Shown: one piece after another, positions 8,368-64,000 of the stretch
Layout: every line of letters starts with the position of its first letter
Numbering within the stretch: the first letter of the stretch is position 1
Translations under genes and position numbers: made by a program
Source of the DNA: Rhizaria sp. SCN 62-66
Lineage: Eukaryota
DNA: 64,000 nt
Direction: 5' to 3'
NCBI GenBank assembly: GCA_001724265.1
Contig: MEDY01000292.1
Location: 1-64,000, forward strand
The notes under the pieces: model-generated
Seen by the model: the letters and a program-made list of their open reading frames with translations, nothing else
Database searches by the model: none
What the model was told of the DNA's origin: nothing

Positions 8368-11300
8368 TTACATGTTATTAAAGCGAATATCCGTCGCTTC
8401 ATATGGCCTGAATCGTTCGAAAACACCCACGTCATCGTGTTGCGAAAAACTGTGAGCAAATGTTGTTTTATCCCAGAGAGGGTTAGAAACAAGCGCCGCC
8501 CAGTCGACGGCAAAACTAGCGGCGCCTGCAGCGGCTGTACTAGCGACTGTATTCGCAGCCGTGAGCTGCGGCATTTTCCCCAGCTCCCCCTGCATAAGCA
8601 CTGCCCGCGCCCTGGGGTGCGCCTTGCTGCGCTGCACGGCCACCACGCGCCACGGCAGTTGCTGCGAAGCAGCCGCGGCGCTGCTGTTACTACCGCCCGC
8701 CTCTGCAGTAGCAGGGCGGGGGTACATGGCAGAGCCGGGCGCGACCGCTACGGGCGAGAGCTGCGACAGGAACACCGTCCCGGTCACCGCATTGCTGAAC
8801 GCCGCCGCGTCGGCCGCGGTCGGGCCTCGGCGCAGCGCTACGGCCACGGGCGCGGCGGCGACGGCGGCAGCGAGCGCGGCCGTGACCGCTGAGAGAGCGT
8901 GGGTCGGAATGGCAGTGCGGGGCGCAAAGGCGATGGCGAATGAGCTTGCGAATGCAGATGCCGCGGGCTTCGAATGAGTCGTACTGGTGAAGACGGTCGG
9001 AGGGACAACGGTCAGGAACGGCCGCGGTTGCGACGACGGTTGCGGATGCAACTCCGAATCGTCCCGGGCAGAGACTGGTGTCGATGCAGAGGCAGATGTT
9101 GCGGCGGTATCTTGTTTGGGTGTAAACATAGGAATTGCTAATGGCACAGCAGTCGCAATATAGTCGCGCGCAACATCAATGTCTGTTGTTGCCGCTGTTA
9201 CTGTTGTTGGGGTCGAGGTCGTGGTGATGAGAAGGGAGACTAGAGCAATGGCGGCAGATGAGAGCTCTTCTGAGAGACACCATTTGTCTTCACTGTTATC
9301 ATCTTCGTGGTCATCGTCGTCCTCGTTGTGATCATCGTCGTCAGAAACGTCGTTCATGCCGCGAGAGCTCGTGCCGCTCTCCGTTGCACCATCCTCTGCA
9401 TTCTTAGTCAGCCCTTCGATGACAGCGTGCGCGATCGGTGCAAACACTGCTAACCCCTGCTGTGACTCGCGCGGCTTAATATCAACAATGCAGCGCGCTG
9501 CAGTCAACACTAGCTGCACTACACTCGCAGAAGCAGAGTCGCTATGAGGGTTGTTCCGAGCGCCGGGCTGAAGAGCGCCGGGAGTGACTGAAAGCAGCGT
9601 CTCAGTGAGCCAGGGAACAATAATAGATGATGGCACCCGCACAGGTAACACGGGCGACACTGAGTCAGACTCGGATTCGGCTGACTCGGGCTGCTGTGAG
9701 CCAAATGGACTCGACGCGGCAGTCAACAGCGACCAGGAGAAGGCTAGCGCAGCTCCAACAGCCTCTGAACATAGTGCAGAAAGGGTATCATTGCTTACAT
9801 GACTATTTCCACTCGCAAAAAAACTGCTGGGGCGAGGAGGGTATAAAAGTGCGGCAAGTGTTGACGTTGAAATTGTCTGCGTGTTCGTGACAAGTGGACA
9901 TGCGCTGAGCAAAGAGCTGGCGATCGTCATGCTCAAATGACGTTGCCAGTCTGAAGTAACAATACTCGAGATGACAGGTTGCTGCGACTGCGGCCGAGAC
10001 TGAGACTGGGACGGAGACTGAGACTGAGGGAGAACGATCCGGGACGCGGCTGCAATCGCGCCAAATGCAGCACCAGCTACAGCACTGCGACACAGGTTAT
10101 CGTCATTGTCGCTGCTGCTGTCAGCGGTGCTCTGCTCGTACGGATATGAACTAGAGTCAAACAGAGGGTTTGTGGCCGGCGCAAGCGCCTGTAGCCGTAA
10201 CCACAACAGCAACCCAGCTCCCGCCCCGACGGTCTCGCAGTCGGCGCTGGCGCTGGCGGCCGGCCCTGTGACGCCCCGCGCAGTGGCGGCAGCGCCGCAG
10301 CCGGGGTAGAAGCGGGCAGCGGCCTGGCGAGGCGTCGCTGCGTTGGCTGCTGACGACTTGTCTCGTACGAGAGCGTTCGTGGTTGCGGTCGTGAGTGTGC
10401 TGCCGTGAAACGCGTTGAACAGCGCAGCGCCTGACCCTGTAAACGCCCACGCAGCGACTGCAGCCCAGGCGGCGGCCAGAGGGGCGACGACGCTAAGGGA
10501 ACCAACGGTCTGCTGGTTCTGTGATGCCGCAGTTGATGAAGATGTAAGGGCGCCCTTATACGCCCCAGTATCGTCAGACTTGATCTGGATTGAGCCAGAA
10601 AGCGTCCTGTTACTCACAAGTTTGCCCATACCGACACCGCTAAAGGCAGTGTTATTAGAAACGCTCGCGCTCACGCCGGTATTGTCACGAGCTGCTGGCG
10701 TGAGGAGCTGTGTGAGACGTGAAGCGAGCAGCGGGAGACATGCGCGCGCAGCGACGCCAACTTTGGAGCCAGCAGTCGCCGAACCAGTGACAGCACGAGT
10801 ATACGTAGGCAGCAAAGGATACTCCGACAAAAGTTGTTGCTGAGAGTTTGTGCTGCTGGTACCGAGGCTGCCGCTCTTTGCAGGCGTAGGCGCTACAAGC
10901 AATAACCCACCGGCTGCGGCAGTCGTCGTGCTGCTCGAAGCTGCCGCCGGCGCGGGTGTCGTGGCCTGCAGTGCTAACGCAGTGTCAAGGACGCAGTCGG
11001 CAACTGCAGCGGCAGGAGCGAGGCTCAGGCCAAGCCCTAGCAAGGCCCGCTGCGCCAAGCCCACGCCTGGGTTAAAGCAATCACTCGCATTCGTGGTTGT
11101 CGCAACAGAAGCGGCAAGCGCAAGCGCTGGCGCGACGGCAGTCGCGGTGATCGCGGTCACGTGCGACGCCGACGTCGCGGCCAGCGTGGTCAGGCCGGTC
11201 ACCGCGTCTTTGCCGGTTACGATCATGTCGCAACTGCACAGAACAACCGCCGCAGATGTCGCCAGGTCGCTCGCATTCGCTGGAGCATCACTTAAACTAG

Positions 11301-14300
11301 AGTCGGAAGCGCAAGTCGTCAAAGCAGTGGCTTCAGTAGCGGCAACTGCGGCAGCTACAGACGCAGCAGCAGAGGCAGCGGCAGCGGCAATTTGCGCACC
11401 AAAGACCTTCGAAGCAGCATATGCCACCGCGTTCGTACTGCCGCTAACGCCAGCACCGGCACTGGTCTGACCCTGCCTGACGCCGGGCGTCTTGGCCGCG
11501 GCGTGGATCTGGCTGCGCGGGGTCGCGCGCTGGCCGGCGCGCGATGGCGTGTGCATGTCGGCACGGCGCATCTGCAGCAAGTTGCTGCTCGCAGCAGCAG
11601 CAGCAGCAGCAGCAGCGCCAGCGCTCAAGGCGGGCCGCAGCGGCGAATACATCGCCAGGCGGCGCGCCTGCAACAGGCTAGTCGCAGCGGCAGTCGCAGG
11701 AACGCTGACACTCGGCGCTGTTGCTGTTGTAGTTAATTTCGTGGTGGCAGAACGAGCGCGCTTTGTCATTGGAGCAACATCCGCCTCGTCCTTGAGCAGA
11801 ACAACGTCCTCTTTGCTCGAGGTCGTATTACCATCCTTCATTAGCACAGCATCTTCTGTGGATTTAACTGAAGCCGCGTCGGTATCTTGAAGCAAAGCCG
11901 CGTCGTCACCGCTCTGGCTCTGCTGAGTCGGCAGCAGTAGCGAGTGAGTTGCCTTCGAGGCCGAGCTCTTGATGCGGATCAAGTGGCCTGCGGCACCGGC
12001 GCCGGCATCAGCGCTGGCTGCCGCGTTGAAAGCGCTGTCGAGAGACACAGCCGCGTGCGGCTTCGCTGAGATCGCACTCTGCTTCTTGCTATTGTCAGCA
12101 GAAACGCCCGGGAGTCCATCCTCAAGAACAGCAGCGCTTGCACTGGCAGAAGTAACACCAGTAGTATTGGTACGGTGTGTGTCAGAGTGCGCCTCAGCGA
12201 CTGGTGGTGCAAGCATGACATCAGGCGAGGTTTGCGCAGAAAAGTCATTTAGACTCGCACTGGGGGTACTTAGACTGACGTCTCCATACACCTCCACCGT
12301 CCGGCGCTTGACGCCGTTGCCAATAAGACTCGAATCATCACCTAGATCTTTGACGGGGGTGGTTAGGTTTCTTGGGGCAAACGCGCTCAGGCGCGCAAGC
12401 GACGCGGCGGCCGTGGGCGCAGCAGAGGCAGCCGCCAACGCAGCCTTCTGCGTCCGCTTGCCGAGCCTGAGCGTCTTGAGCGCAATCCGCCGCAGCCTCT
12501 CGGTGCGCGCGCCCGTGGCGTAGGCCAGCGCGACGAGCGCCGCGGCGGCGGGCGGCAGCCGCGCGGGCAGCGCGGGGAAACCAGACTGCGCCGCGTTGCC
12601 GCTGCCGCTGCTACTAACAACGCTAGGGCCGAACTGAGTGTGGGCGGCGTACGGCTCACAACCGAGGGCGGCACCGGTCAGGGAGACAATCGCGCCGCAG
12701 CCGAAGAGCGTGCGCGCAGTCTCCAGCGCCATCGGCACTGACTGTAAGCAGCCGGAGGATCGTGAGCCACTCGCTGACGGAGAGCAGCGCATCAGCGACT
12801 GCGGCAACGACAGGGGATCAGTCACCCAGCAGTACACCGGGGTCGGCGACGGCGCCAGCAGCGCGGCGGCCACGGCGGCGGCGGCCAGCGTGCCTGCGGC
12901 AGCGACGGCGGCGGCGTCGGAAGGCAGCCAGCAGGTGCAAGTGGGGAAGACGAGCTTGCCTTGGGACTGATGTCGAGGCACTGCACCGATAGTGTGACTC
13001 GCAGTAGAGCTTGACGTCTTAGCAGTGTGCTTGAAGGCAAACGACGGAGTCGCTGCCTTCACTGGTGTAAAGGGCTTCGTCGTCGGAGTCGACGCAGAAA
13101 CGGCACCAGCGGCAGCGGCGGCTGAGTTGTGCTTAGACTTGCCTTTGACTGGCGTCGATGCCGCTGACGCTGTTGACACCGGCGGCGATGTCGCTGCAGT
13201 CGCTCGGGTGACAGTGACAGCACAAACGCAGCGAATGCACTGGCCGTGCCAGGCGTCGTCGTCGTCGTCGTCGTCGCTGTCGCCGTCGCCGTCGCGCACA
13301 GCGCTACGACCACGACGGCCGTTGGGAACCGTAAAAACGCAGTTGTCATCATCGTCGTCCTCATCATTGTCATTATCGTCATCGACATCATCTTCGTCGT
13401 GGGGAGAGCGAGCTACACGGGGGGTGTTCTTGCCACTCCGACTGCTAGTGCGTGCAAAGACAGGGCTGGAACCAGGCGTTTTCGCGGAATCTGATCCGTC
13501 ACGCATCGCGCCAGCAGCACAGGCCGCGGCGGCAACGGCGGCTGTGACCGCAATGGAGACTGACGGCGAGAGCGCGGTGGTGACAGATAGCACGAGTCCA
13601 GTGACATCGGCCACGGTCACGCCGCTGCCGCTCACATTGCTGCCAGCATTCACCGTCACATTAGCGCTCGAGCCCGCAGTCGAGTGAGTGTAAGGAGGTG
13701 AGAGCAAGGGTAAGGGGGTGGCGACACGAGGCAGCTTGGTCAGAGCAGTGACTGTGAGCGCAGTCACAGCGGGGCAGGCGCTCACGGTCAGCGAGGAAGT
13801 CAAGCCGCTGCGACTTAACTTATGGAAGGCGCGGAGTGACGCAAGGAACAGAGCGGCCGTGGTCGCAGCGGCCGAGTAAGGACACTTGCCCACAGTCACT
13901 TTGTACGTGGCACAGCGGTCTTGGTCACGGTCACTCATACTAGCCTGGCCACTGTTATCAATCGCTCCCACTGCTGCCGCTGCCGTCGCCGTCGTGACCC
14001 TGAGCAGAGCTGCGACTAAGCCGCTGTCGGTGTTCGGACTCGCACTCGCAGCGCCTGTGGTGCTACTCGAGAGCTTCAGAGGCTGTGCTGCGGTCATTTT
14101 GAATGACGACGCCAGAACGCCGTTCATGGTGACTGTGGGCACCCACCCTTCACGGACACTTAGATCTGAGCCCTAGGTACTTAGACGGGGCAGCGTTGTC
14201 CACACACTGTCTGACATGACGCTTAAGCCAATCGTGCCGGCAGCAACACAGCCAGAGACACTGCTAGTCGCGTTTTGTCCAGCGTTGCTATCCCGAAAGC

Positions 14301-17300
14301 CGCTGTGTCGAGCGAGACACAGAGGCAGCGGCAGCGGCGGTGGCTGCGAGAGCTGACTCAGCCACTGGTGCTGCTGCTGTTGTTGCTGCGGTTGTGGTTG
14401 TTGGTTGCTGCTGGCGGAACTATCGCCCGAGCTCGACTGCCAAGAGCTGTTACCAGAGTAACTGCTGCTGGCGTTAGAGCTAAGGGCGTTGGCAACGGCT
14501 GACGTCAGCAGCAGCGGCAGCGGCAGACCCGAGGTCGCTGCCGCCACCGCAGCCGCACTCGCGGGGGTGATGCTCGGCGCAGCGCTCCCGTCTCCGTCTA
14601 AAGGGGTACTTAGACGGACATCTGGGAACAGAGGCTGGTCGCGGCCGTCCGCCCCCGCCCCCGCCGCAGCAGTCGCGGCGACCAGTTCGGCCAGTGTCAC
14701 GGGCCGCAGTCCGGTCGCCTTGCCACCCTTAGACCGGCGGCTAAGTGCCCCGCCCTGAGACTGCGGGAGCGCGATGGGGGCGCCGAGGCCCAGCGCTGCG
14801 GAGGCGAGCGTGCCGGTGACCCGGGACCAGTGCCACACTGCGGCGGCCGCGGCGGCGACGGTCACTTCGGGCTGGGACCCCTCAGGATGAACAGATGCTG
14901 CTGACACGTCATCACTGGCGCTGCCTTTGCGTTGCAGCTGTGCGGTTTGCTGCGTGGCTGTAAGCAGGGTCTTGCGCCAAAGCTGTTCGAACGCATTGAT
15001 GTCGCCGTCGTCATCGTCAGTGTAGCCCTCAGAGTCGCTGGCGCTGGCACTCGCGCTCGCGCTCGCACTCGCACTTCGCGGACCACAGTCGCACTCGCCC
15101 TCATTATCATCGTCACCGTCACCATCGTTGTCTTTGGCGATGCAACTACGACAGCTTCTTTTCGTGCTTGTGCGCTGCAATTTTGGTGCGGATGGGTTGC
15201 TACGGGCCGCGACTGAGGCTTTGCGAGGCGACATGCCCAGCGCCCGTCGGGCAGCCGCTGCGTAGTGCGCAGCGCTCTCCCTCAGCTGCTGCGCCTGCCG
15301 CAAAGTGGGCACGGCGCCGCCCTGCTGCTGCTGCAGCAGCCACGGCAAACGGCCGCCGCCGCCGCCGCCGCCGCCGCCGCTAGCGCTGGTCCCGGCGCTA
15401 AAACTGGCGCGAATGCCAGAGCTATAGACAGAGCCAGAGCCGGAGACAGAGGCAGAGGCGGAGATGGGGCGGAGACTTAATCCAGAGCTGCTGCGAATGG
15501 TGAAGCTAGAAGTGTTTGTGCTGCTAAAATTCGCGGCACTCGTGTAACCAATCGCTGTGGTCGTATTGCTGCTGAGATACGTCTGGTACTGAAACTGCGC
15601 CGACGCAGACTCAGAGCCAGAGCCGTAGGAGCCGGATTGTTTTAAAGTCAAGCCGGTGATGAGTACCGCGGCGCCCTCGGAGCACGTGGCCAGCAGGACT
15701 GGCGACGGAGAGTACATAGTGACTGTGAGCACCACACCGGTGGGAACAAGCTCACTGCCACTTAGACTCGCATCTAAAGAACTTAGACTGCTGCTTGTCG
15801 CGGCTGGTACAAGAGCAAGCTCGGCAAGTGTGAGCGTAACCGTGGTGCCAAAACGACGGGAACGAGGGTTCAACGCCTCTTCTAAGGTCTCTTGTGCAGC
15901 CACAAACGCCTCAACAGTCCGTGCACTCACACCACCCACATTAACAGCCTTAGAGCTCGAACTTGAGCCAAAGCTAAAGTCACCAGCATTGTCTTCGCTT
16001 TGTCCGCTGTGAGACGACGCGTTCTCGCCAGCGAAGGTGGCCACGGCGGCCTGCAGCCCCGCGAGCCAGGCCGCGTGGGCCGCGGCGCCCCGGCTGGCCC
16101 CGGTGACGCGGTCGCGCACCTTGGCGGTCGTGCGGCGCAGCACCAGCCCCCGCAGCGCCGAGAGCGCGGGCGCGGCCGCGGGCGGCGTGGGCGCAGAGGC
16201 GGCGGCGGCCGGGAACAGCGGCGGATGCAGCGGCAACGGGGGCGCCAGGGAGAGGGCCGCGGAGAGGCAGGCCGGCAGCGGCAGCAGCGGCGGCAGCAGC
16301 GGCGGCAGCGACGCGCTCGAGTGACCGACAGTGGTGCTGACACTAAAGCTCGCGCCCGAGCTGAGATGTGTTGAAAGGAGAGGTGTTGTAATAGGAAGGC
16401 CCAGGGACGCGCTGAGACACGTCAACGCCAGAGTATGCAGACTCTGCTTCACAGAGAAGGCCAACGGGGGCGGCTTGACTTCCGCGACCCCCGGCGTAGT
16501 TTGCGCCACGTAAGGCGGCAGCGTTGTAGCCGTGGTTGTGGCCGCATCGGCAGCGGCCAGCGAAAGCCAGACAAGGACTGAGAACACCGGCAGTGAGTTC
16601 GGGAAGCACTTGCTAGGCTGCAAAAACGACACGACAGACTGCGCCTGTGCATAGGTGCGGGCGCTACTTAGATCCTCCTTGCGGGCACTTAGGCCGGCTG
16701 CAGAGAGGAGCAGCTGCCTCACCGTGTCGGCCATCGTCGCGACGGCGTGCGAGCAGTGCTGCTCACGGTCGCTGGGCCGCAGCGGGGCCCCGCTCTCCGT
16801 CTGGGCTGTATCGCCACCCTTAGACGGGGCAAGTACTCCAGCCGCGGCTTGGACGAGAGCAGCGCGGGCTTGGGCCAGCCATCCTGACCCCGCCGCCGCA
16901 GTGGAAGCGCCAGTGCCAGTGGCAGTGGCAGAGGCAGCGACAGGGGCAGGGGAGTAGGCGAGGGCGGCCGCAGCCGCCGTTGCAACCAAAGCTGACGCTG
17001 AGACGGAAGCTGAAGCTGAAGTGGGCGAGTGCTTTACAGAGCTAGAACTCCCGTTCGCCCCCGTGCTCGAGCTCTGGCTAGGGCTGCTCGATGGCAACCA
17101 AGTGCGGATTGACGACAGATCAACCACGCCCACCGAACTGCTGCCGCCGCTGCTGGCGCCGCTCACCCCGCCGCTGCCCGTCGCCGCCACGGTTACACCG
17201 CTCGCACCGGCGGTGTTTGTCGCAGTGCTGGCCGTGACTGACCCGGGGAAGCTGTACGTGCTGGCGGGCACTGCCATCGCGGGGCGGGTAAGTACCCCCA

Positions 17301-20300
17301 GGCGCGCGTCTAAGGGGGCCGCGCGCGTGGCTAAGTGGGTGAGAAACAACACCGCGACGGAGTTGGTGTTGGGCGTCACGCCGTCAATGTAAGTGCCCGC
17401 CGTGACTAAGGGGGCGAAGTCAGTGCTTACACTGGAAGACCCCTTAGATGCTGTTTCTGGAAGTAATGCGCCATTAGACTGTTGTTTCAGCAGAAGATGC
17501 GCTAATGGATGTTGCGGCAACTGGGGAAAATCAGCTGAAAGGTCGCCGATAATGCAATTAGTGGTGACCGAAGCAGCAGCTGTCATCCCCTTATACGTAC
17601 TCACCAGAAGCTTGTCGCTACTTTTGCTCTCAGGAGGGGTCGGATGTGCCTGCGTGTACCGCTGTAAGCAGGTACTTACTTTGTCTAAGCGGAACGGGTC
17701 GTGGTTGTCCAAGGGCGGCGTGGGGTCAGACGCAGCGACCGTGAGCAGAGCGCTCGCCCCTGTCACAGTCAACCCGCTCCCGCCGCCGCCGCCGCCGCCG
17801 CCGCTCTGGCCCGCGCCCGCGCCCGCACTCGCAGTGCCGCGGCCGCCACCGTGGTAGCTGGTAGGACTCGCTTTGCTGGTAATGCTGCTGCTGTTGTTGT
17901 TACTGTTGCGGAGGCGCAGGTCAGCCTCCTCCTCGGCCGCCCGGACGACTGCAGCGGCGGCAGCAGAGGGGCCCACAGCGAAGAGCTGCGCGTTCGCGGT
18001 CTCGAGCTTAACGCCGGCGCGGATATATAGCGGCGGCTGACTGCGACCGTCATCGCCGCGGGCACTTGTGACAGTGCTCGTGACAGTGCGCGTGCCCGTG
18101 GTGGAACTGGTGGGGTGTTCGGTCGCGGCAGCGCTGCTCACGGTCACTTGCTTGGGACTGAGGCCGAGGCCGGCACGGATCACAGTGAGGAGCTCGCTCA
18201 GCGCCTGCTTACCCTCGCTAAGTGCCACCGCGCCCTTGGACGTCGACTCAGCCTCGCCGCCGCTGTCGGGTCTAAGTCCAATTACCCCCTTGGCCGCGCC
18301 CCGCAACACGAGGTCGTCCTCCCACACCGCGCCCGCCTGTTCGCACGCGCTGATGACATGTCCCAGTGCCCAGAGCCGCTGCAGACTGCCGTCGAGCCGC
18401 GCCGGCACGCTGTAGAGCCCGTCCGAGAGCAGCACGTGCGCGCCGCCGGGGCCAGAACCCGCGGGCCAGCACACCTGGTCCGAAGTCAGGCGGCTCAGGT
18501 GCTGGTTAGTCAAGCCACCCCCGCCGCTGAGGCCTTGATCTGCGCTGAGACTGAGGCTGTGGCTGCCGCTGTGGGTGTTGAGAGCGGAGACGAGGGGAGC
18601 CAGCCACGGCGGGGGCAACCACGGCAGCTGGTTGCTGCTGCCGCCGCCGCTCGAAAAGCCACTTGAAGCAACAGCGTTGATGTTGTTGTTGCCCGCTGGC
18701 GTTGCGTGTGAGTGCGCCTGGAGCTGCAGCTGCGACTGGAGCCCGGGCTGCAGCGACTGCTGCGGCGGCGGTGGCGGCGGCGGGACGAGCGGTGGGTACG
18801 CGTGGGTCACGAGTAGCGCCACGCGCGCCGTGCTGCTGGCGTCCTTCTCGCACATGTCGCGCACCCACGACCTCGCGCCCGGCCGCGCCACCGACTGCAG
18901 GGGGCCGTGGGCAGCGGCAGAGTGACTGTGGGCAGATGCTGTGGTCGAGGGAGCGTTCTTGTCGAGAGAGGGAGCGTCGGGAGAAGGACTGTGCGCAGGG
19001 CAGCTGTACCTCATCAGGGGGCGGCTTAACTTCACGCCGACCGGGGTCATCACCGTGGCCACTGCGGCAGGCGTGCGCAGCGTGACTGGAGCCAGGGGCA
19101 GCGGGGCCAGCTCGGCGCGTAAGCGGCGTAGCAGGAGGACCAGGATGCGGCTCGGCGTCAGCGCACGCATATACACCTCAGTATGTGGGCGTGGGGAGTG
19201 ACTGTCAGAATGACTGTGAGCATGAGTGGGGCCCAAGTGACTGTGCACGCGGTCGGCGGCCGCGGCCTCCCACACCGCCTGAGCGAAGGCCGCTCGCACC
19301 CAGGGAACAGTGACTGCGCTGGCAACCTGGGGGGCCAGCGGCCTGACTACAAAGACATCCGTGTCACTCTCAGTACCCGTGGGGCTCTTGTTCTCGAGAG
19401 TGACGCCGTGTGAAGCAAGGTTGTGCAGTAAGATGTAGAAAGTTCGCCAGTCAGAGTACTGCAAGGGGGTACTTACTGCGTTTAAGTACCCGCACTCAGC
19501 AGCACCAGTACAAAGCACTGAGCATGTCTCTGACGCCACCAATGTGTGGTCTTGCGCTGCTTCGTCATCGCAGTCTGTTGCTGACGCTGCTGTAGCTGTA
19601 GTTGTGGGTGTCGATGTAAGTACGTCAGACAGCAGAGGTGTAAGTGTCACCCAAGGCAGCGCGATCTGAGTCGGACTTGTCGCAATGTCGTTCGACGCAG
19701 AGGTTAAGCCGTGGTCCTCCGAAGTCAAGCCGCTTCCGAGAGCGCAGAGCGCAGCGAGAATGTCCCTCGTCTCAATGTCGCTTTTAGCGTCAGTTCCGTC
19801 CGAGTCCGAGTGACCGTGGTCGGCGAACACGGCCCGCCACACGGCCGCGGCCTGACTTTGATTCGGGCGGTGCGGCCACGGCGCCAGCAGCGTCGCCTGG
19901 GCGCACAGCGTGACGGTGCGCAGGTGGTGCCGAATGTTCCACAGGGACACCGACGCGGCTAAGGGGGTGTACAGCGGGTAAGGGCAGTCCGCGGTGGAGG
20001 AAACGCTAGAACCCGTTGCAGCGGCCGTCGACACTGAGGCAGCGGCGCATAGACTTCGACTGGTGTAAGTAGCCGGGATCGCGGAGAAAGGGCGGCGGCG
20101 CAGAAGCGATGCAAACTGGCACGCGCGGCACTTACACAGGCTAAGTGTCTCCACCTTAGACCGGTCTGAGTAAAGGCAAAGACACAAGTACGGTAGTTGC
20201 TGCTGCTGTTGTTGTTGCTGCTGAAGCGACTGCTCACAGTCACTTGATGGCCTTTGCGGGAAAGGCAATGGCATGCCTTGTGAAACGCCGTGAAAGGGGT

Positions 20301-22974: not shown

Positions 22975-23994
22975 ATCGAGTCATGTGAGTATTTAATAAA
23001 GAGAATAAAAGTTAAATATACCGATAAATGTGGTAATCGTATCCTAGATCTATAGACGGTCATTTGCCAGAGAATTCAGCGGTATGAAGTCATCCCTCAA
23101 AGGCGCGCTGTGAACGCAAGATTGACCATTGGTGACTGGCTCGAAATGCATCTGAGAGTGTAGACAAGTCTATCATACCTCCACGGGTACAAAAATTGAA
23201 TACCTTAATCCTTTTTTGCATGAAATTATTTTCTAAGGTTCCGCAACGCCCCTCTTTTGCATAAAGCTTCATGTCTCATGGTTTATGTCGCAAAGTAGAC
23301 TTTGACCACCTTATTTAAGGCGAATGCAGCTCTCATAAACCAATGTAACAGACTGGCATCAAGAATCCAGCGCTGCAACCTACACTGTATAACACATAAA
23401 ACTTGCTGATATGCTTGATTTTTCATCCAATCTCAATATAAGATCATGAATGACACTTTTGTCTAGCGCAACTTTTTGTGGTCAGAATTGAATATGTCCA
23501 TACAGTAAGTGTAACAAAGCTGACGACATAAAATACTCTTGCAATTGACGTCTCATGTTTTAGCGTGTTGTTTTTCAGACGTAACATGTGTAAAAATAAC
23601 TGTATCCGCTTGCTCTACTCATCCGAAGTAAGATCATTACGACTTTTCAAACTGTGGTAAGTACTTAAAATGCAGAATATCTCATCAGAACAAAAGTTAT
23701 AGCATAGATCTACTTAAAGAAATGTACGTACAGTAGTTTCCCGACTGCTGCCTAACTTTTTTCTAAATATAAAAACATCTCGAGCTAGAAAACGCAACTT
23801 TTTTACTCTTCCTCAAACACGCGCACAAGCACGCGTCGCCGAGGGATGAAGACTGTCAAAGACCTCAAGCTAGTCAAAAGTATCATCACTTGCACATGCC
23901 TCATAGTATCGTGAAACGTTACTGCGACCTGGCCTTTAAATAATATTGTTTATAAAATACTTGATTGTTTTTGTCATTCTTCATTTTAAAGAGA

Positions 23995-25968: not shown

Positions 25969-26130
25969 ACCCCTTGCCCCTTACTTACCTCTCTTTGAAC
26001 TCTTGTGCATGTGGTCAGGTGGTCCGTCATCTTACGAGGTCACCATGTTGATTCACGCCCGCAATTACACCTATGGTTTCATTATTTCTCACATGTATCG
26101 GCTATTTAATTTCATTTTATTTATTTAGAC

Positions 26131-29341: not shown

Positions 29342-29554
29342 ACGACATTGTTCATGATTATCTCGATATATTGATCGTCAAGTTGCATTTTCATATTAAA
29401 ATCTAAATTAAATTATTATTTTAACTAGGTTTCTGTAATAATACCTTCTTAATCTAAGACTGCATCTCTCTACTGACAATTGCTTCGACTAACTCTTGAC
29501 AGGAAGAAAGCAACACATCGGATTCCCGCTTTACCCCCCTTGTCACTCGGCACC

Positions 29555-33488: not shown

Positions 33489-33579
<91 letters not shown>

Positions 33580-40385: not shown

Positions 40386-40416
<31 letters not shown>

Positions 40417-53500: not shown

Positions 53501-55149
53501 GAGGTGTAGACGGTGAGCCCGATGATGAAGTCGCAGTTGCGGAGCACGGTCTCGCGCAGCAGCAGGTGCTTGTGCGAGAGAGGGATTACGGTCGGCGCAG
53601 AGCCCGGCGCGAAGGCGTCCAGAGACTCAGTCGCAGCACTAGTGTTGTTGTTGCTGTTGGGCAGCGGCAGACGCGGGGTGACGGTGAGCGTGCCGCGGAA
53701 CCTGTCGAAGTGGGCGTTGGGCGCCTCAAACCGTACGTGCAGGTCGACCAAACGGAGGCTGTCGCCGCTGCCTTCGCCGCGATCCTCGATCAGCGGCCGA
53801 AGCGCGTGGGGTGCCGACATGACCTCGAGCGTGGTCTCGCCGTTGAGGTTGGCCTTGTCCACGAAGCACTGACCGCGGGGCTCGCTCGAGCCCAGCAGCA
53901 CGAGGTCGCAGGGAATCATCTGGTTCTTGTACACTTTAACTATGGAGCCAATCTTCATGTCGCCGCTGTTGCACACCTCGAACGCCTGGTTGTCATGCAG
54001 CAGCTTGGCGCGGATCGCGTGCCGCTGCGCCGACTCCGCGCTCGCCGCCGCGCCGCCGCCGTCCGCGCCAGCGCCGCCGCCCGCGCCGCCCGCGTTCGCA
54101 GTACTTGCGCCGGTCAGCGGGGGCTCGCCGGGGAGCGTCAGCAGGGACTGCCACTGGATGCGGCGGCGCTTCGAGCTCTGCCCCTCGCACTCGAACAGAT
54201 CGCTCGGGCTCACGACGACCGTGCTGGGGTCGACGGCCACTGCGGTGCTCAGCGACGGGTGCGGCAGCGGCTCCAGCGAGAGCGGCGGCGCGGCCTGGCT
54301 CTGCGAGGGCGTCAGCGTCGGCGTCGTCGTGATCGCCAGCGACAGCGGCAGCGCGGGCGCCTGGTAGTTGTCGCCGGCGGCGTTGCTCTGAGGGTTGTTG
54401 GTCACGATCGCCAGCGAGTGCGGAGTCGCGTACGCGCCTTGAGCACCGTACGCAGCGCCGCGGGTGTGAGCGTTGTGGTTGTAGCTGTAGTTCGAATTGT
54501 TGTTGCCGCCGCCGCCGCCGCTGCCGGTGGAGAAGGGACTCGTGGCGGAGAAGGCGCCGCTGTAGCGAGCGGGCAGCGGCTCGAGACGCCAGTACTTTGT
54601 CTTGTTGCGCGCGGCATCAGCCAGGTGCCGCGAGCGGTCCTCGAGCGCGGCGCGCACGGCGCCAACAAAGATGATAAGCGCGAGCGGCGAGTAGATGGTC
54701 GGGAGCCCGTTGGTGGTGGTGACGGCGGGAATCATCTGGAAGATACCGATGATGAGGAAGTACAGATTCGCGCGGTTTGAGAACTGCAGCAGCGTGTTCT
54801 TCGGCAGGAAGTTCCACCAGGTGTACTGCGAGGTAATGACCTTGTTGTCGTGCGAGTACCGGGGAATATTGGCGAGGTACTTGACGCGGCCGCCGCGGAT
54901 CAAGGCAGCGCGGTCCGAAGGCAAGCCTCCCGCGGCAGCTGCGGCGGCGGCGGCGGCGGCGGACGCAGCGGAGGCCGAGGCGGCCGCCGCAGAGGTGGGA
55001 GGTGAGGAAATGGGCGAAGTAAAGGCGGAGGCCGGCTGGCTGCCGTGGTGGCCGTGGCTGCCGTGGCCGCCGTGGCCGCCGTAGCCCGTGTGCGGCGAGG
55101 AGGGGAGACTGCTACTCGCCCCCGCAGTCCCCGAGGCAGGAGTGCTCAT
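44583..55149 (-). CDS. P4-type ATPase (phospholipid flippase), ~3402 aa; exons 55149-51602, 51415-47218, 47045-44583
   Basis: NKVITSQYTWWNFLPKN..QF..ANLYFL; IPCDLVLL; NLNGET; PISL; FSDKTGTLTQNKMEF; EDKLQ..VPET; WMITGDKTETA; LAIGDGANDTEMI. Introns 51601-51416 and 47217-47046 (GTACG...AG) keep the frame. Ends TAA. Confidence 0.92.
50078..50126. repeat. (GAGCTA)n hexanucleotide tract encoding poly-Ser in the P4-ATPase
   Basis: Directly visible and slightly imperfect. Similar tracts at ~20896-20922 and in other exons. Confidence 0.85.
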
Positions 55150-56648
55150 TGTGGACGAGGTGGGCTTCGCGTGAGAAGCAGGTAAAGCGGGTTCGAAACC
55201 GCCGCGCTAGAAAAAGCTTGGCAAGACGCGGACGGAGAGAAGAGTCGGAAGTTGGATGGCAAAATGCCTGGGGAAAAGAGTGACAGTCCAAGTTGCGAGC
55301 GGTCAAGTCAAGACAGTCGCTCTGCTGGATTCCTATTCAGAAGCAAAGGAACAGGAGTTGCGGCAAGAAAAATATAAATTACGGGTAGAGTTAAATGTGA
55401 GCCTTTGCGTAAAGCCGAAGAATAGGAGAAATACTGTGGCTGGAGAGGGAGATGCGAAAGAAGAAAGAAGTGGGAGATCAAGGAGGGGGCGGTTGACACG
55501 AACAAGCGACATCACACGCAAAATGAATTTATGAAGCTATATGCAAATCACAGTAATGACAAAACACCTGGATCTGTTTGAGCACTTGATATCATTCCTA
55601 TTCAATGATGCTGATGCGAGAAATTCGTCTTCGAAAACGCCTCTCGTGGTCTACGTCTTTGCTAGTCGCGCCACTGCCTGGGCTGCTGGACTCGATCCAC
55701 CACAAGCGTCCTCCGTAAACACTAAAGCACAGATATATCACTGTAAAAAGTGCTTGATGTGTCTATTTTGAACTATAGCTCGGGTTCGTGAAATTTATAT
55801 ATTATATTATGGAATTGCACTAAATTATATTGATTTATATTGTATTAAGCTTCTCTTAGTGTTAGGAGTTGTGCAATTGTTACTTACTCCTCAGTGTTGA
55901 CAACAACTTCTTACGCAGCTGAACACAGATATTAACGTTAAATAACAGAAAAAAGTCTTTTGGCAACCAGTAATAAAAACACTCTGCGTTATTATGTTCG
56001 TGATTGTCTCAAATACTTAGAGATATATCCCATTGGGTTAAGCGAGCGATAACTTGAAAAACACTTGTTGCCATCAGTTGTGCAATGGTGAAGTGCGTAG
56101 TGCTACGAGGGCGAGTTGCAAGTGAAATGTAAGGTGCAAATGTTGGCGGTTTTAATCATGGTGACGTCAACATATCGTTTTATGTTGCTTGTGGCCGACT
56201 CTACACTCTAAAATTACAAGTGTCTCTTGATAATGTCATCTTAGTTCACTGGATAAATCATCAAAACCAATGCCTTTAAGTGCGAAAGCAACGTATAACA
56301 TAAGATACAATTGATATTATGCTTTACTTGAAATTAATCAGAAAGGCTGATATTAATACTGTTTTAAGATCTGGAATGTTGATGCTTGCAAGCAATCGAG
56401 CGCGACCCGACTAGACTCAGCTTTGCCCGCGCAAAGCATCGGAATTTGATAGCGAATATCTCGCGCTTTAATCGTAATAATGTAATTTCTTGACTGGTAC
56501 AGATATTTTCTAGTGTTAAAATTAACTTTCCTTTAATAATATAATCACAGTATATATTCACGTCTCGTAATCCTTGTTTGAATCCTCCCTTAGATCGCGC
56601 CTACAACACGCGCGGCGCGCTTTGGTGGGATCGTCCGTCTCTCCCCCG

Positions 56649-59633
56649 ATGTCGGCGCCACCAACCTCCAGCAAGCTCGAGCGGCTGCGGCGCAACCCAT
56701 CATACGCCGTTAACCCGCTTGTAGGCCTTAGATCCTTTGCGCGCAGGGCATCTGTGTTGCCTCAGTACGGGCCCGCTCTCCCGCCAACCTCATCACACAA
56801 CAGCAACTTCAGTTCGAACAACACCAGCAACAGCGCCACCACCTTTTCTGCTTCTGCTATGGTGGCCACTTCTAGTGTTTCTGCAGCCGCGACGCCCTCA
56901 GCAAGCTTTGGGCCTCGGTCCCGGCTGTCCAACGCGTCCGCTGAGCTAAGCGACCGCGACGACGACGACGACGACGCTGACAATGAGTCGAACAGCGACA
57001 ACATGTACGCCCGTGCGAGTGCCAATGCCAGTTATGATATTCCCATGACAGGAAGCGTTGACGCGCCGCAGCATGTGTCAAAGCGCTCTCGCCTCGCTCC
57101 AGCCGCAATCCCCGTCACCGCCAACAAAGCCAACAACAGTCACATTGCTCGCAATCGCTTTGACGTGCAGCTAGCCCCGTTCTGCGAGCGCTGCGGCCGC
57201 AACATGGCCAACAACAACGCAAACACTGAACTTAATGCTAATTCTGTTAGTATGGCCGCGAATACGAGTGCGAGGGGTGGCATCAGCAGTTTGAGCGAGG
57301 TTTGCCTCTGTTTGCCGCTGAATGCCACCGCATCGTGGTGTTACCGCGGCAACAAGAGCGGCCATGGCATTGATACTGGCAGCGTAGACAACGGTGCTGG
57401 AGCAGCTATCAGTCGCCGCAAGAGCAAGAGCAGCAATCGCGATGCTCCCGGCGGCGACGAGGCTGACGCCTTTTCCAACGCTCCAACTCTAACCAGCTAC
57501 TCGTGTGACACAACGCAGCTGGCTATGGACGACTCTGACATCAGCAAGGCGAGCGGTCAAGCAACTGAGAGTAGCAACGGGTCAGAAACCTCGACAGTTT
57601 CACTCACATGTACGTTTTTCTCGAATTATTATGTCTGAGTATTAACACCTGACACTTCAGACACTTTTATTGAACTTGTTTTGCGATATAACTGACTTAC
57701 ACATCTTTTTGTTTCAATGCATCCCGAACCGTTCCGTAGATTCCTCTTGTCTCCCGCCTCTGCCTGCCTCTGGAACGAGTGCAAGGACAACTGCGAGTGG
57801 GGGCGCGAGTGCTGTATCCGTGCCACAACTCGCCGCCGCCGTCGCCGCCCGCGCCGCCGCGCTATCCAGTATCTGCACGGCCGCGGTCGCGTGCACCGGC
57901 TTGTGGAGCAGTGCGGACGCGCAGAGCAAACTGCTGGCGCTCGCTGCTGCGCTCACGACGACCGCAGGTGAGCCGCGAGCAGCAACAGCAGGAAACACAA
58001 AACTTCCTACAATTTCCAACACAATCACAAACACAAACGCAAACAGCGTCACTAACGCCAACCTTGCTGCCGTATTTGCAAATGCTGCGACTTTGTTTCA
58101 CAACAAGCTGCTGCACTTGACATCGACTGGTGCGAATAACAACAAATGCGACTGCGAGCAGAGTAGCGGCTCTGAGCAGGGGTTGTGGAGCTCGCTTGCG
58201 TGGCTTACTCCGCTCGATGCGCAGAACGGGCGTTTACAGTCATCAAACCCGCATGTTCGTTCTGCCCCAAGGTCTAGTGCGGGTGCGAGCGCTTGTGCGA
58301 GCGTGAGTGATCGTTCTGCTGTTGATGCTGATACCGACGCTGACGCCAACGTGACCGCTGGCGCTGGTGCGTGGGCTGTAACGAGGGCGCTGACGCTCAC
58401 GCCCTCGCTCGCCACCGCTCTCTCGCTCACAAGCACAGCCACCCCGTCTGCGCACACAGCCGCCGCTGGCGGTTCCAGCAATCGCGGTCACACCGCTCCT
58501 GCGAGCGCAAGCGCGAGTACGAGCGTCGCTGCTGATGCGGCGGCGTTTCGGCTCCTGATCTCGACGCCTGCATCAGCACTGCAAGCCGCCCACAGTCACT
58601 CTGCCGCCGCAGCAAGTGCTGTTTACAGTCAGTTGGGAAATGGCAACGTGCCCGCAGCTGAAGCGAGCTTGTTTCACGCGAACTCCACTCTACTGACGGC
58701 GCAAGCGGCTCGCAGTCTATTGACGGCCACTCCGAGTGGTTCCGCTCAGTCTCTCTGTCACGCGACGGAGGCCGCGAGGCTGTTATCTTCTCTCGGTGTC
58801 AAAACAAGGCTTGTGACCGTGAGCAAGCGTTCTCTCTCTGCCAAAGCGAACACTCCTTCTTCTCATGATGGCTTAATATTTGACGCCAGGGACCATGAGC
58901 AGCAGCAACAGCAGTATTGTCGCGGTCACTGTCAGCAAAACACGTCCCCAGTGGTATTATCAGCCACGGCTGCGGGATCAACGTGGCGGCACTTGCTGTC
59001 TGCAGCTGCGGTGAGCGCGCGTGCCGAGGCTGCGGCGAACCTTGCTGCCGCGGGTCTAAGGGGGTACTTAGACCAGGACAACTCGACGCCAACGAAGACA
59101 GATAGGACTGAGACTGGCCCTAGTTCAAGCAGTTCTAGTGCCAGCGAGCAACAACAGCTGCAGCAGCCGCGGTCGTTTGTGTCGTTGCTTGCTTCTAATG
59201 CAACTAACGCACGGCTGTGGCGCTGCGTTGCTCTGCAAGGCGGCGGTAAAGTTAGCGCAAAGCACTTAAGCAACAGCCCTAACGATAATAGTGGTGCGTT
59301 GCTGTTTGTCATGGTCCCTGCGGTTGCTTTAATCCACTTATCCGGCCCTTTTTTCGGCACTGAGAGCTTCGACTCTGTGCCGAGTAAAGTTGAAACACGG
59401 CAAATCAGGTACTGGCACCGCCGTCTGTCGCCATCTGCAGCTACAAACACCACTAAAAACAACACGGCCGCGAACATGAACGCCAACGCTAATGACTCTG
59501 AGACCGACAGTGACACTGACGATGACGACGACGATAATGATGATGATGATGATGATGATGACGGAGACAGTGGCGCTGACAGTGATGACAATGATGTCGA
59601 TGCGATTGCAGACGTGCTACTCCCAACATTAGC

Positions 59634-59670
<37 letters not shown>

Positions 59671-62600
59671 GCAACGGCAACGGCAGCTCCAACAAACCTG
59701 AACACCAATACCAGCACAAACTCAAGTACCACCACCAGCACGACTCTCACTGACCCGAACGCCAAGACCAATCCGACCGTTAATGCCCCGATGCCACCGC
59801 CACCGCTGCTGCCGCCGCCGCTGCCCCCGCGCAGCTCCCCGCTCGCGGCCGCGGTGCTGCTGTTTAAGGGCCGGGCTCTGCTTACGGTCACGCAGGCGCG
59901 CTCCGTGGCGACGGCGGCGCTGCATCACAGGTACCTCGCCCTTGCCCGTCTGCCTCCCAGTACCGGCAGCAGCGTCAACGCCAACAAGTCTCGTATGCAC
60001 GCTGAACAGCAGCAAGAGCAGTGTCAGTGCGGCTGTGTAACGACGAGTAAATCCCTGTCACCCGCTTGTATTGGACCCGCCCCCTCGCCGCCGCCTCTGC
60101 TGCCCACGGCCCCATTCGCCCGCCTGCCGCCCGCGGTGCGCGGCGCGCTGGCTGCCGCGGCCGCGGGAGTCGGCCGGCTTGGCGCGCGGGCTGCCGCGGC
60201 CGCGGTGGCGGCGAACGAGGCCGTGAGCGCGGTCGAGAAGGGGCTGCGCAAGCTCGTGCTTGCGGTCACCGCGCTGAACCGCATTGCGGCCGTGCGCAAC
60301 CATAGCAGCGGCAGCAACAATATTGGCAGCGAGCATGACAAGCAAGTGACGGTGGGCGGTGCCCATAGTCTGAGTAACACTGATAGAAACAACTTCGACA
60401 CTGTCGCAACCAGTGATGTTGCTGAAGCGTCTGCCGCCGCTGCTAGTAACGCTGCATTACACGCTGCCGCCCTATCTCTGCTCTCTGCACTAGGTGCCGT
60501 CATCACAACTACGGCCGCCGCAGCCGAGGCCGCCGCAACCGCCTCCGCCGCGGCTCTGGCCGCCGCAGCCGCCACGGCCGCCGCGCGCGCGGGCCCAGGC
60601 GCCGGCCCGGCCTCCGCCGCCGCCGCCGCTGCCCACAGTCATCTCACAGGAGGAGGCGGCGGCGGCGGCGGCGGTGCTGGGGGCTGGGGCGGGTTTGAGA
60701 CCAGCGACTCCGACAACGGCGCCATTGCAACCTCAACAGCTCCAGCATCGGCCGCAGCCCACAGCGATACGTCGGATGCCGACGCTGGCTTGAGCGCGAG
60801 CGCGAGCGTCGGTGCCGGCGTCGCAGGCTGGGGCGGCAAGGGCTGGGTGGCGGGCTCGCTGGCCGTCAACAGGCTGCGGGCGCTGGGCAAGGAGGCCGCG
60901 ACATCTGTGGCGACTCTGCTGAGGCCGGCGGCCGCAGCGGCGGTCACGGCGGCGGCGGCGACTGCTGCGGCGGCGGCGAACGCTGCGGCGGAGGCGAACG
61001 CGAACGCTGTGCTTGCCCGCAAGAGCGGCAGCAAGATGAAGAGCAAGGACAAGAGCTCGGATGCTAGTGCTCATGCAAGTAGTAGTGCCGCCTCAGTTGG
61101 CGTGAGCGGAGTCCAGGTGTCGTCCTTGGTCGCAAGCGACGGCGCGATCCGCAAATGCTGCCAGTTGCTGCTGCAGCAACAGCAACAAGGTGTTCATGCT
61201 AACGCTGACGTGAGCGATCGTCTTGCCGATGGAATTGCAGGTAATGATGGCATCAGCAGTTCAGGACTACTCACGGTCACTCGTGTGCTCACAGTCACTG
61301 CTTTACGTCTTGTGCTGCAACTACTGCTGCCATCAACAGCAACAGCAACAGCAACAACGCCAGCAGCAGCAGGAGGCTCCCACTTGCATTTCGGCTCAGA
61401 AGCTCAAGCAATCAAGTTTATTAGTCATGACTTATTCTCAAGTCGTAATGCAAACATCAACAGTGGCTCCATCACGAATGCTAATGCAACTACAGCTGCT
61501 AAGAAGACGAATGTAAATCCGCATGGGAGTGTAAGTGCCCCGCAACACATCACCCTCAGTCTCCCTTCCACTTACAAGTACTACCACTAGTACTCACCTG
61601 AACAACTCCAGCAACAACAGGAGCAAACTAAGGAGACGGGCACAAACACTGGCGCTAATCCTGACACCCGCAGCCGCAGTGATCGTGCTCGCCGCGGCCG
61701 ATACGTGACGCTGTCGCTGCCTCTCACGGTTACTCTGCCGCTGGCATTGACGCCCATGGCAGTTGCGACGCTTGTCGCCGCTGCCACGGCTGCTGTGACC
61801 AACTCTAGCCTCAACAGCCTTGCAATGACAGCGACCGCCGTGGACTCACTGCCGCTGCCGTGCTCTGCGCTGCCTCTCCCTCCTCTGCCTTCTCTCATCG
61901 CAACCGCAACCAGTGTGACGACGGCACTCGCCCCGTTTGCGGGCGTTGTCGGCATCTACGCCTCGCTCACCCGCGGCAACGGCGGTCTCAGCACCCTCAT
62001 CGGCGGCAATGTAAGTGCTCCTGGTTCAGGTGGTCTAAGCACCTTCAGCAATCTCAACGGGAACACTCACCACAGTGCGGGGCTCGGGCGGCTTGTTTTC
62101 GATATGAACAAAATCATCCCTTTCATCTCCCCCTCAACCAGCGCAAGCAACGTCAATGCGAGCACTGCTAACCTTCACAATGCGGGCAGCGGCGGCCTCA
62201 ACAGGGGCGCGGCAGCGGTGGCAGCGCTCGCCGCGGCGACGGCGGCGGCAGCGGCGGCCTCAGCAGCAGCCGCAGCGGCGGCCAGGGGCCAGCAGCCACA
62301 GCCGCTGTCGCACGGCAGCAGCGACGCGTTGGCGGCTGCGGCGGCGGCGGTCACTGCGGGCGCGGTTGGCGCGAGCGTAAGCATTGGCAGTCTTGTTGCT
62401 CCAACACGAGGAGTGAATGCAGCTCCAAACAAATCTGCGTCGATCACATTGCTCAGTCAAGACAACTCTGACCAAGATGGCGACGGTGAGTATGACGACA
62501 ATCGCGTTCACCGCTCCAGCATTGACGACGATAACGATGATGCGACGACATTAAGCAAGAGCAAGAGCATCAAAATGACCGACAAGGACGACGGCAACGA

Positions 62601-64000
62601 CGACGGCGATGACTATGGCTTTGTGTCCGCGGCTGTCGCAGCCGCAGGAGCAGAGACGGAGGCTGATGTTGACGCTGAGCTTGACACTGACGACAACAGC
62701 AGTGATGTTGCTGCTCTTGTTCGCTTGTATCCGTACATTCCTCGTTACTTGCAGCCACAATTGCCTCTCACGATTGTCGATCTTCCCCCTTACATTCAGA
62801 AGACACGTCTAAGTGTCGTTAACTTGAACAGTAACGTGATGAATCAGAAGATCGGCGATGACACTTCAAACGCAAAGAGTGACGACGATAGTGACAAAGA
62901 CAACGACAGCGATGACAACAACGAGACGAACAGCGGCTCTGGTTACGACAACGATGATGACGATGATGACCATCACAATTTGTTGGAGCTTCTCCTCGGC
63001 GGCAGGTCACAAACCCAAGGCGGCCTAACTTCTGTGTTCAGCGGGCCTGTCTCGCACCGGTCCCCGCTGTCCCGCGCCCACAGTCACTTTTTAATCACAG
63101 CAGTTTCATCAGCACAACAACAGCACCAACTACAGCTACTCCAACTGCACCAGCGACATCGACAGCGGCAGCAGCAGCAGCTGCAGCAAGAGCTGTCGAC
63201 GATGCCTCACTACAACATCCGTGCCTTTCACGGCCCTTTCTCCCCCCGCTCCCTCACTGTGGTGTCGCGCAGCAGCCCCGGCCTCCGCGCCCCGCGCGCG
63301 CTTCTGTCGATGCTCTCGGCGACGCTGCCGCCCTCGCACCCGCTGCTGCTGCTGCCTACCGCCGTCCGCCACTTTCCGCCCTGCGCGCTGCGGCTCATCC
63401 TCACGCTCGCCGCGCACAGGCATCTTAAGTACTTCGGCCGCGTACAGCTCAACCTCTTTTTTCGGTCCCTCGGCCTGCCCGTCGAAAACGCGATCGCTTT
63501 TTGGCGCGACGGCCTCACCGCCAAGGCTCGGCCGAAGAGTAGCCCCAACCCCGGTGCGAGCTCTAGCAGCAACGCTAGCGCCGGCGCCGGTGCCAGTGCT
63601 GCTGGCTTCGGTGGCGGTGTGAGCATTGCGTTTGGCGGCGTCAGTGTCGCTGTCGCTAGGCGCGTCGGCCTGCTGTCGGTCGACAACGCCGCTGTCGCTC
63701 TCGGGCTGACTGACACCGAAACAACAACTACTACCACGACGACGACGACGACGACGACGACGAGTGGTGTTGGTTCTAAGTCGTCTAAGTACACTGCGGC
63801 CTCGTCTAAGTACCGCCGCAGCGGCAAGAACCTCATGTATGACAGTGATCCGAACAACGCAAACGACGACGAGGCCGGTGACCATGATGACGACGACGTT
63901 GTGATTGCCAAAACTACCGCAGACTTGATCGATAACACCAGCTCGAGTGCTTGTGCGAGTGCAAGCGACAACGGGACCGTGACTGAGTCCGGGACTGAGA
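56649..64000 (+). CDS. PRIM2: DNA primase large subunit (PRIM2/PriL), greatly expanded, 3'-truncated by the window edge; exons 56649-57609 and 57740->64000; in-frame TAG at 61588-61590
   Basis: After the TAG the frame stays open to 64000 (missed by the ORF track). At 63367-63507 it encodes RHFPPCALRLILTLAAHRHLKYFGRVQLNLFFRSLGLPVENAIAFWR, matching the p58C Fe-S domain pattern FP.CM..L...L....HL.H.GR.Q..LFLK.IGL..E.A..FWR. Weaker N-domain-like motifs lie upstream of the TAG: FVMVPAVALIHL (~59305) and VLLFKGRALL (~59854). Intron GTACGT...TAG is phase-compatible. Confidence 0.82.

Follow-up and report, generated by a model that had tools for sequence, protein, structure and literature searches.

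Does an uncultured eukaryote of wastewater reactors read TAG as an amino acid while still ending its proteins at TAA and TGA? The question is raised by the first 64,000 nucleotides of contig MEDY01000292.1 (assembly GCA_001724265.1, Rhizaria sp. SCN 62-66), a stretch that we call the window, in which five long open reading frames (ORFs) run through TAG codons and meet no other stop on the way. The original prediction held that TAG is a sense codon here and that TAA and TGA terminate. Our analysis of the window and of four related loci supports this in part, in that coding sequences kept open across TAG contain no TAA or TGA and no gene ends in TAG. We put the probability that TAG is a sense codon while TAA and TGA terminate, with glutamine as its likely meaning, at about 0.7.

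All 13 in-frame TAGs that had been predicted are present at their positions, two on the minus strand (14173 and 29117) and 11 on the plus strand, and with TAG read through, none of the five frames that carry them has an internal TAA or TGA (Table 1). The gene ends are also as described, with TAA at 8019, 8368, 27865, 31618, 36110, 41283 and 44583 and TGA at 25524, 40785 and 42609; TAA thus closes 7 of 10 genes, TGA 3 and TAG none. Ten gene models totaling 17,188 codons contain 12 TAGs and not one TAA or TGA, and the frames of the related loci (L001 to L004) show no sense use of UAA or UGA either. We also listed, in all six frames, every single stop with at least 120 open codons on both sides. 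Four of these junctions are TAGs, three of them in modeled coding frames: 14173 (between 2,935 and 1,934 open codons), 61588 (1,314 and 803) and 30653 (191 and 320). The fourth, at 4530 on the minus strand, is antisense to the gene at 1066–8019. The 16 TAA and TGA junctions are without exception off-frame or antisense to modeled genes, or intronic (47197). About nine of the 13 TAGs lie inside genuine coding sequence, and truncated protein pieces cut at TAG (P0020, P0024, P0025 and P0027) are already in the protein database.

Four of the TAGs belong to a kinase-like gene, whose stop-to-stop frame across 26585, 26816 and 26849 has its first methionine only at residue 154. An upstream exon breaks off at ...GCTGCAG/GTTCGT (26377/26378), a pyrimidine tract with CACTGCAG runs up to 26498, and joining 26377 to 26499 in phase 1 leads exactly into the TAG-bearing frame. 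The four related loci, from Joint Genome Institute (JGI) metagenome contigs, are 74–78% identical to this gene in protein and 83–86% in DNA. In one of them, L001 (76% protein identity), the homologous exon, with its ATG at 388, is followed by a 111-nt intron, GTGCGT...CACTACAG, whose splicing, once more in phase 1, opens onto the corresponding TAG-bearing frame. Because splicing restores the frame in both copies despite their different intron lengths, the gene model holds in both. The TAG at 26585 is kept at the identical codon in L001, and two other members of the family, P0021 and P0026, have ORFs that stay open across the positions of 26585, 26816 and 26849, where they read N, T and Q. Coding potential over the TAG-bearing segment (26530–26890) equals that of the rest of exon 2.

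The pattern of gaps in this family points the same way. Within the ORF body all eight pairwise gaps are 3 nt long (three in L001, two each in L002 and L003, one in L004), corresponding to three distinct events across the four loci. In the 3′ flank each locus shows 6–12 gaps, most of them 1, 2, 5, 8 or 19 nt long, and they are about 7-fold denser than in the ORF body. Since gaps are exclusively in frame within the ORF body and often out of frame in the flank, the kinase-like frame has been kept open. Across the window and the four loci, in-frame TAG occupies nine independent alignment columns, two of which belong to exon 1 and the other seven to exon 2, and TAA and TGA occupy none.

Six more TAGs lie in a cysteine-rich gene that has a TAG-free paralog nearby. 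The six-TAG gene starts with ATG, shows coding-type GC periodicity (0.66/0.50/0.77) up to its first TAG, and is followed by AT-rich sequence after its TAA end. It contains no TAA, no TGA and no frameshift, and is colinear with the paralog from the N- to the C-terminus. The blocks common to the two are interleaved with the TAGs: D-V-E-A...C..C...FP.C..HGLL..P before the first, a C..C..C motif between the fourth and fifth, GY...C.LC.S after the fifth, W.RK..HFG.QC after the sixth, and RRVT.MP...R at the C-terminus. With homology maintained from the first block to the last residue and no TAA, TGA or frameshift in between, the six-TAG frame is a single coding sequence. A contig from a polyA library (X6) is colinear with the window over 29517–29940, spanning the TAG at 29831, with three differences, which may include the TAG itself; another contig ends at 14191, 16 nt before it would reach the TAG at 14173. 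No relative of near length was found for the six-TAG protein in the protein collection. The paralogs themselves are divergent, cysteine-rich (C..C..C, C.LC) and without a Pfam match.

Could the TAGs instead be assembly or sequencing errors, or be edited from UAG to CAG in the mRNA? We discount this almost entirely. Contigs from two studies, X1 and X3, are identical to the window over 13259–14567, which covers the TAG at 14173, and show no differences over 29689–31226, X1 perhaps being the source sample of the window and hence perhaps not independent. TAGs also recur in the four independent metagenome loci. At 14173, which lies in a giant low-complexity gene, a 1,919-aa protein (P0024) has been called from the half downstream of the TAG, beginning just after it, and occurs on five contigs. 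The upstream half of the gene has no exact sequence in the protein collection, and a search of 1.84 billion representative proteins with a 1,101-aa stretch around 14173 yielded nothing beyond the downstream half of that stretch itself.

Another way to keep the standard code is to place the TAGs in unrecognized in-frame introns or in untranslated regions. Introns ending in TAG do exist here, such as the one in the P4-ATPase gene that ends in TTTTAG at 47046, and TAGs at 55207, 42980 and 42252 lie in a 5′ leader or in introns. Two of the 13 sites have ordinary readings of this kind. The TAG at 61588, in a second giant frame, is a weaker site, since it may form the final triplet of a candidate 60-nt intron that opens with GTAAGT. 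The TAG at 29117 is a weak case because a methionine follows it, and the TAG may lie upstream of the true start; the tyrosine-recombinase-like ORF that carries it adjoins an integrase-like remnant. The original prediction had named 27857 as the only TAG that might be a true stop. As the second-last codon, 27857 is indeed ambiguous; CGC TAA TAA comes directly after it (L001 has TCG there and then the same CGC TAA TAA). Counting 29117 and 61588, three of the 13 sites have ordinary alternative readings. For the remaining sites, introns or untranslated sequence are a very unlikely explanation. No GT..YAG intron candidate spans 14173 or 30653, and the candidates over 26585 all combine the known donor with weaker downstream acceptors. 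Known introns are 111–176 nt long, AT-rich and filled with stops, against a GC content of 53–68% around the TAG sites. Moreover, the X6 RNA contig is colinear with the gene, and paralogs encode protein across the same positions.

Three further lines of evidence were of limited use at these sites. A codon-usage score trained on other genes fluctuated too much over windows of 120 nt to be informative at 14173, 61588 and 30653. Mapping of contigs at a likeness of at least 90 piled up low-complexity and paralogous contigs, and among the long pieces listed none covers 26010–28880. Depth in X6 falls close to zero in one bin within the giant gene, just as it does between genes, and is therefore uninformative on transcription. 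The giant frames at 1066–8019 (2,317 codons), 8368–22980 (4,870) and 57646–63999 (more than 2,100) consist mostly of Ala, Ser, Thr, Asn, Asp and Gln runs, and in two of the three the GC content at third codon positions is 0.62–0.66, compared with 0.82–0.85 in the flippase.

How far does the dominance of TAG itself speak for reassignment? We used the harshest null, in which every nonsense mutation is tolerated. Under it TAG makes up 0.50–0.64 of the expected nonsense input, because CAG, AAG, GAG, TCG, TGG and TAC are common codons. The chance that all stops are TAG is then 0.043 for the seven kinase-like family columns, 0.03 for the six sites of 29555–31618 and 0.26 for the two giant genes, with a product of about 3e-4 by hand arithmetic. 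The excess is real but not overwhelming.

Several observations weigh against a sense TAG. Each gene taken alone is only moderately significant by these figures. In the kinase-like family, divergence is highest at codon position 1 (0.11–0.17), lower at position 3 (0.08–0.13) and lowest at position 2 (0.06–0.11; the near-identical pair L002/L003 left aside), a pattern by which the family appears nearly free of amino-acid constraint and under no ordinary purifying selection. The 3′ flank has diverged about as much as the ORF in L001 and L004. Neutral decay would predict about two new stops per copy, which roughly matches the one to four TAGs seen. TAG accounts for 12 of 578 glutamine-type codons (2.1%) and occurs in four of the ten gene models, and 10 of the 12 fall in two fast-evolving genes on an AT-richer island with transposon remnants. 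It is absent from the 9,001 codons of the six other models, including those for the P4-ATPase and the CTU1-type protein, and no conserved Pfam domain in the window holds one. Finally, if TAG usually closed 20–25% of genes, a share that we assume, finding none among ten ends would have a chance of about 0.06–0.1.

Some of these points are what the standard code would predict if the genes at 26–31.6 kb were decaying duplicates tied to transposon remnants, if 14173 and 61588 were recent nonsense alleles or intronic, and if the dominance of TAG came from common codons. Besides the near-neutral divergence, the matching number of stops and the 50–64% share of TAG in nonsense input, this account draws on the kinase-like family being multi-copy, on the integrase-like remnant and the recombinase-like ORF that flank it, and on a 55-nt duplication near the 3′ end of one subfamily. 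We nevertheless consider it quite improbable. Every gap in the ORF body is in frame, against frequent out-of-frame ones in the flank, and no TAA, TGA or frameshift has appeared in 9 + 6 + 2 independent events, an outcome whose joint probability is about 1e-4 to 3e-4 (hand arithmetic). Two copies with 76% protein identity share one of the TAGs, the gene at 29555–31618 is colinear with its paralog to the last residues, and splicing restores the frame in two copies with different intron lengths.

The remaining alternative is that the meaning of TAG is dual or leaky. It would be read through partly or depending on context, by a suppressor or a near-cognate tRNA, and may still terminate; dispensable, fast-evolving genes would then tolerate it and other genes avoid it. 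The low and uneven use of the codon is what such a code would produce, the TAG at 27857, two codons before TAA TAA, can be taken as sense or stop, and the sample of gene ends is only ten. Even so, none of those ends is a TAG, a gene with six TAGs in 687 codons would yield hardly any full-length protein without efficient read-through, and the base after TAG varies (G, C, T or A), so the sites have no known read-through context in common. We regard leaky decoding as unlikely and prefer a reassigned TAG. The original prediction had not noted how unevenly TAG is used. This rarity and unevenness fit a young or inefficient reassignment, and they also leave room for a leaky or dual meaning of the codon.

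Which amino acid would TAG encode? The clearest indication comes from a motif, I-Q-A-Q-(L/V), in the exon-1 coiled-coil repeat of the kinase-like relatives. The two glutamine codons are CAG and CAG in the first repeat of L001, CAG and TAG in its second repeat, and TAG and CAG in L002, so that TAG replaces CAG at two of two motif positions. In the six-TAG gene, three TAGs stand inside a CAA/CAG run at 29942–29974. In the exon-2 alignment, too, glutamine stands opposite TAG more often than any other residue, in 8 of 25 cells over seven columns by hand count. The residues in these columns are nonetheless mixed (N; T; S/Q; D/G; Q/W/K; Q/K/L; S/W), which counts against a clear assignment; because they are mostly one-step mutational neighbors of TAG, they say little about the amino acid. 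Glutamine, which had been proposed as the probable meaning, is favored by the CAG replacements and the CAA/CAG run, and exon 2 is not decisive. From the sequence comparisons we consider UAG = Gln likely, and UAG may alternatively encode leucine, as it does in the rhizarian exLh.

The kinase-like family has several further features. The family profile gives a weak match to the catalytic-loop region of protein kinases (PknG, E = 0.003); an AlphaFold2 model of exon 2 was unusable, with a mean predicted local distance difference test (pLDDT) score of 33. The high divergence at position 1 and low divergence at position 2, together with the strict frame (26501–27862 against L001 to L004), suggest diversifying selection, and we describe the family as fast-evolving, multi-copy and possibly diversifying. 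An origin of the TAGs by C-to-T changes resembling repeat-induced point mutation (RIP) was rejected, as the codons opposite them (TCG, TGG, CAG, AAG, ACG, GAC, CTG and AAC) show no consistent direction. The first exon of the family is a coiled coil, and L002 carries a copy of this exon after its kinase-like ORF. An integrase-like (rve) core remnant follows the kinase-like gene at a conserved distance in the window, L001 and L004, with the Pfam match on L004 (E = 1.2e-5, below cutoff), and in the window (region 26131–29377) the recombinase-like ORF then follows on the opposite strand. The family looks like one that is carried by, or trapped within, a mobile element. In one subfamily (L002 at about 700–1040; P0025 to P0027) the 55-nt duplication is in tandem and shifts the frame, giving a different, longer C-terminus common to several copies. 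L004 also contains a Sushi/CCP-like cysteine-rich ORF (1120–2163) and part of a POT-family peptide transporter (3546–4424), the latter with poly-Asn and poly-Asp runs in the protein style of the window.

The genes of the window also indicate the kind of host. Cellular genes are split by introns, which marks the DNA as nuclear and eukaryotic. It comes from an uncultured organism that has spliceosomal introns and encodes giant low-complexity proteins. GC content is about 60%, with GC-rich coding blocks and AT-richer spacers, and a contig of at least 64 kb with this composition is unlike what we take a ciliate macronuclear chromosome to be. The sequence recurs in metagenomes of seven studies, from bioreactors, wastewater, microbial fuel cells and activated sludge, and one run that contains it is recorded as polyA RNA. 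The DNA runs that contain it are X1 to X4, of which X4 has a strain diverged by roughly 1%; scans of genome contigs and of viral contigs gave no match. Two cellular genes are recognizable, both on the minus strand. One encodes a P4-ATPase (flippase) of about 3,400 codons with very large low-complexity insertions. Its domains (PhoLip_ATPase_N, E1-E2_ATPase and PhoLip_ATPase_C) are spread over three ORFs, between which lie two AT-rich introns, each about 170 nt long (GTACGG..CACAG and GTACGT..TTTTAG), and its best relatives in the protein collection are 47–57% identical over 15–24% of the middle exon. Its 3,407 codons include no in-frame TAG, nor do the exons of the neighboring gene for a PP-loop protein of tRNA 2-thiolation (CTU1/TtuA type), for which a protein atlas gave generic PP-loop clusters and nothing more specific. 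In five of five introns inspected (26378, the 43049 region, 47215 and 51590 in the window, and 872 in L001) the 5′ splice site is GT(A/T/G)CG(T/G), a consensus with C at +4 and G at +5 that is stricter than the usual GTRAGT. No tRNA gene was found in the 64-kb window or in L001 to L004, no Rfam family matched anywhere in the window, and no eRF1 was found among the window ORFs scanned against Pfam.

Table 1. Coordinates of the genes, frames and introns discussed in the text.
Feature	Position	Strand	Details
Giant low-complexity gene (TAG-open frame)	8368–22980	−	4870 codons (4870 aa); one TAG, 14173–14175; TAA end at 8368
TAG-free paralog of the six-TAG gene	23965–25524	+	519-aa ORF; TGA end
Kinase-like gene, exon 1	26131–26377	+	ATG at 26131; 82 codons plus 1 nt; coding potential positive in frame
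Kinase-like gene, intron	26378–26498	+	121 nt; GTTCGT...pyrimidine tract...CAG
TAG-open frame of the kinase-like gene	26417–27865	+	four TAGs; frame start 26417 intronic, exon from 26499
Kinase-like gene, exon 2	26499–27865	+	TAGs 26585, 26816, 26849, 27857; TAA TAA end at 27863
Tyrosine-recombinase-like ORF (TAG-open frame)	28691–29377	−	one TAG, 29117–29119; ResT/TelK catalytic domain E = 0.031, below cutoff
TAG-open frame of the cysteine-rich gene	29477–31618	+	six TAGs
Cysteine-rich gene	29555–31618	+	687 codons; TAGs 29831, 29945, 29957, 29963, 30077, 30653; TAA end
PP-loop tRNA 2-thiolation (CTU1/TtuA-type) gene	42609–44139	−	introns present; TGA end at 42609
P4-ATPase (flippase) gene	44583–55206	−	three ORF pieces, two introns; TAA end
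Second giant low-complexity frame (TAG-open)	57646–63999	+	leaves the window; one TAG, 61588–61590
Candidate in-frame intron	61531–61590	+	60 nt; GTAAGT...CCACTAG; would remove TAG 61588

In mechanistic terms, ribosomes of this organism would insert an amino acid at UAG, in all likelihood glutamine, with UAA (preferred) and UGA staying terminators. Such decoding would call for a tRNA with a CUA anticodon, presumably derived from tRNA-Gln, and for a release factor eRF1 that does not recognize UAG. Given the rarity of TAG in well-conserved genes, the change may be young or the decoding inefficient. We tentatively propose, as a possibility that we hold at somewhat less than even odds, an independent and undescribed UAG-only reassignment in a GC-rich, intron-bearing non-ciliate of wastewater reactors, caught at an early stage in which UAG would already be decoded (as Gln) and purged from gene ends but would have spread only into fast-evolving genes. 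Our search of the literature, which did not extend to supplementary files, brought up no activated-sludge eukaryote with a reassigned UAG. Codon capture and ambiguous intermediate models are hard to test on long-established reassignments, and the low, uneven use of TAG, if reassignment is correct, may capture an early step. A practical consequence would be that gene callers set to the standard code cut the proteins of this host at TAG.

How does this case compare with known codes? UAG-only nuclear codes are described for few lineages, namely Iotanema, one rhizarian and some phyllopharyngean ciliates (PMC5304391, PMC11687900); they are rare, as the original prediction had it, but Iotanema is no longer the sole example. 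Such codes show that the translation machinery can tell UAG from UAA, and another one, in a GC-rich organism unrelated to these, would supply an independent data point. The closest counterpart is Iotanema spirale (Fornicata), an anaerobic gut flagellate known from its transcriptome, in which UAG encodes glutamine, UAA and UGA are stops and there are no UAG terminators (Panek et al. 2017, PMC5304391). Its 126 genes with in-frame UAGs contain 204 of them, the ends of 119 genes comprise 104 UAA and 15 UGA, and the glutamine meaning was set on 28 hyperconserved positions (PMC5304391). As in Iotanema, only UAG would be changed in the window, UAA is the main end (seven TAA and three TGA), none of the ten gene ends is UAG and glutamine is likely. 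The differences are that glutamine rests on two motif positions here, that just 4 of 10 models contain a TAG, with TAG amounting to 2% of glutamine-type codons, and that the window genome is GC-rich with introns of 110–180 nt.

The published account of the phyllopharyngean ciliates Hartmannula sinica and Trochilia petrani gives UAG = Gln codes that share with ours the change of UAG only, the preference for UAA as stop and the discovery through metagenome mining (PMC11687900). In ciliates with reassigned UAG, according to the same source, an internal UAG is present in 78–91% of genes, and suppressor tRNAs have been found; the rarity of TAG in the window contrasts with this and is a further point against reassignment. 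In the rhizarian exLh (Sainouroidea), UAG is described as leucine with UAA and UGA as stops (PMC5304391), which likewise decouples UAG from UAA in a non-ciliate protist. In our alignment, leucine stands opposite TAG in 1 of 25 exon-2 cells (hand count) and the coiled-coil motif points to glutamine. In an oligohymenophorean ciliate, UAA and UAG are reported to specify two distinct amino acids (McGowan et al. 2023, PMC10553269), making both codons sense, whereas TAA terminates here. The crAss-like phages described with genetic code 15 (PMC9523058) have the same codon table, with TAG as glutamine, but in phages of bacteria rather than in eukaryotic genes with spliceosomal introns. The ambiguous codes of Condylostoma and the karyorelicts are not matched, as TAG terminates 0 of 10 genes in this small sample of ends, and neither is programmed stop-codon read-through, given up to six TAGs per gene and varying bases after them. 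We conclude that this case would add to the known class of UAG-only codes, and that its interest lies in the non-ciliate, GC-rich host and in the very low and uneven use of TAG.

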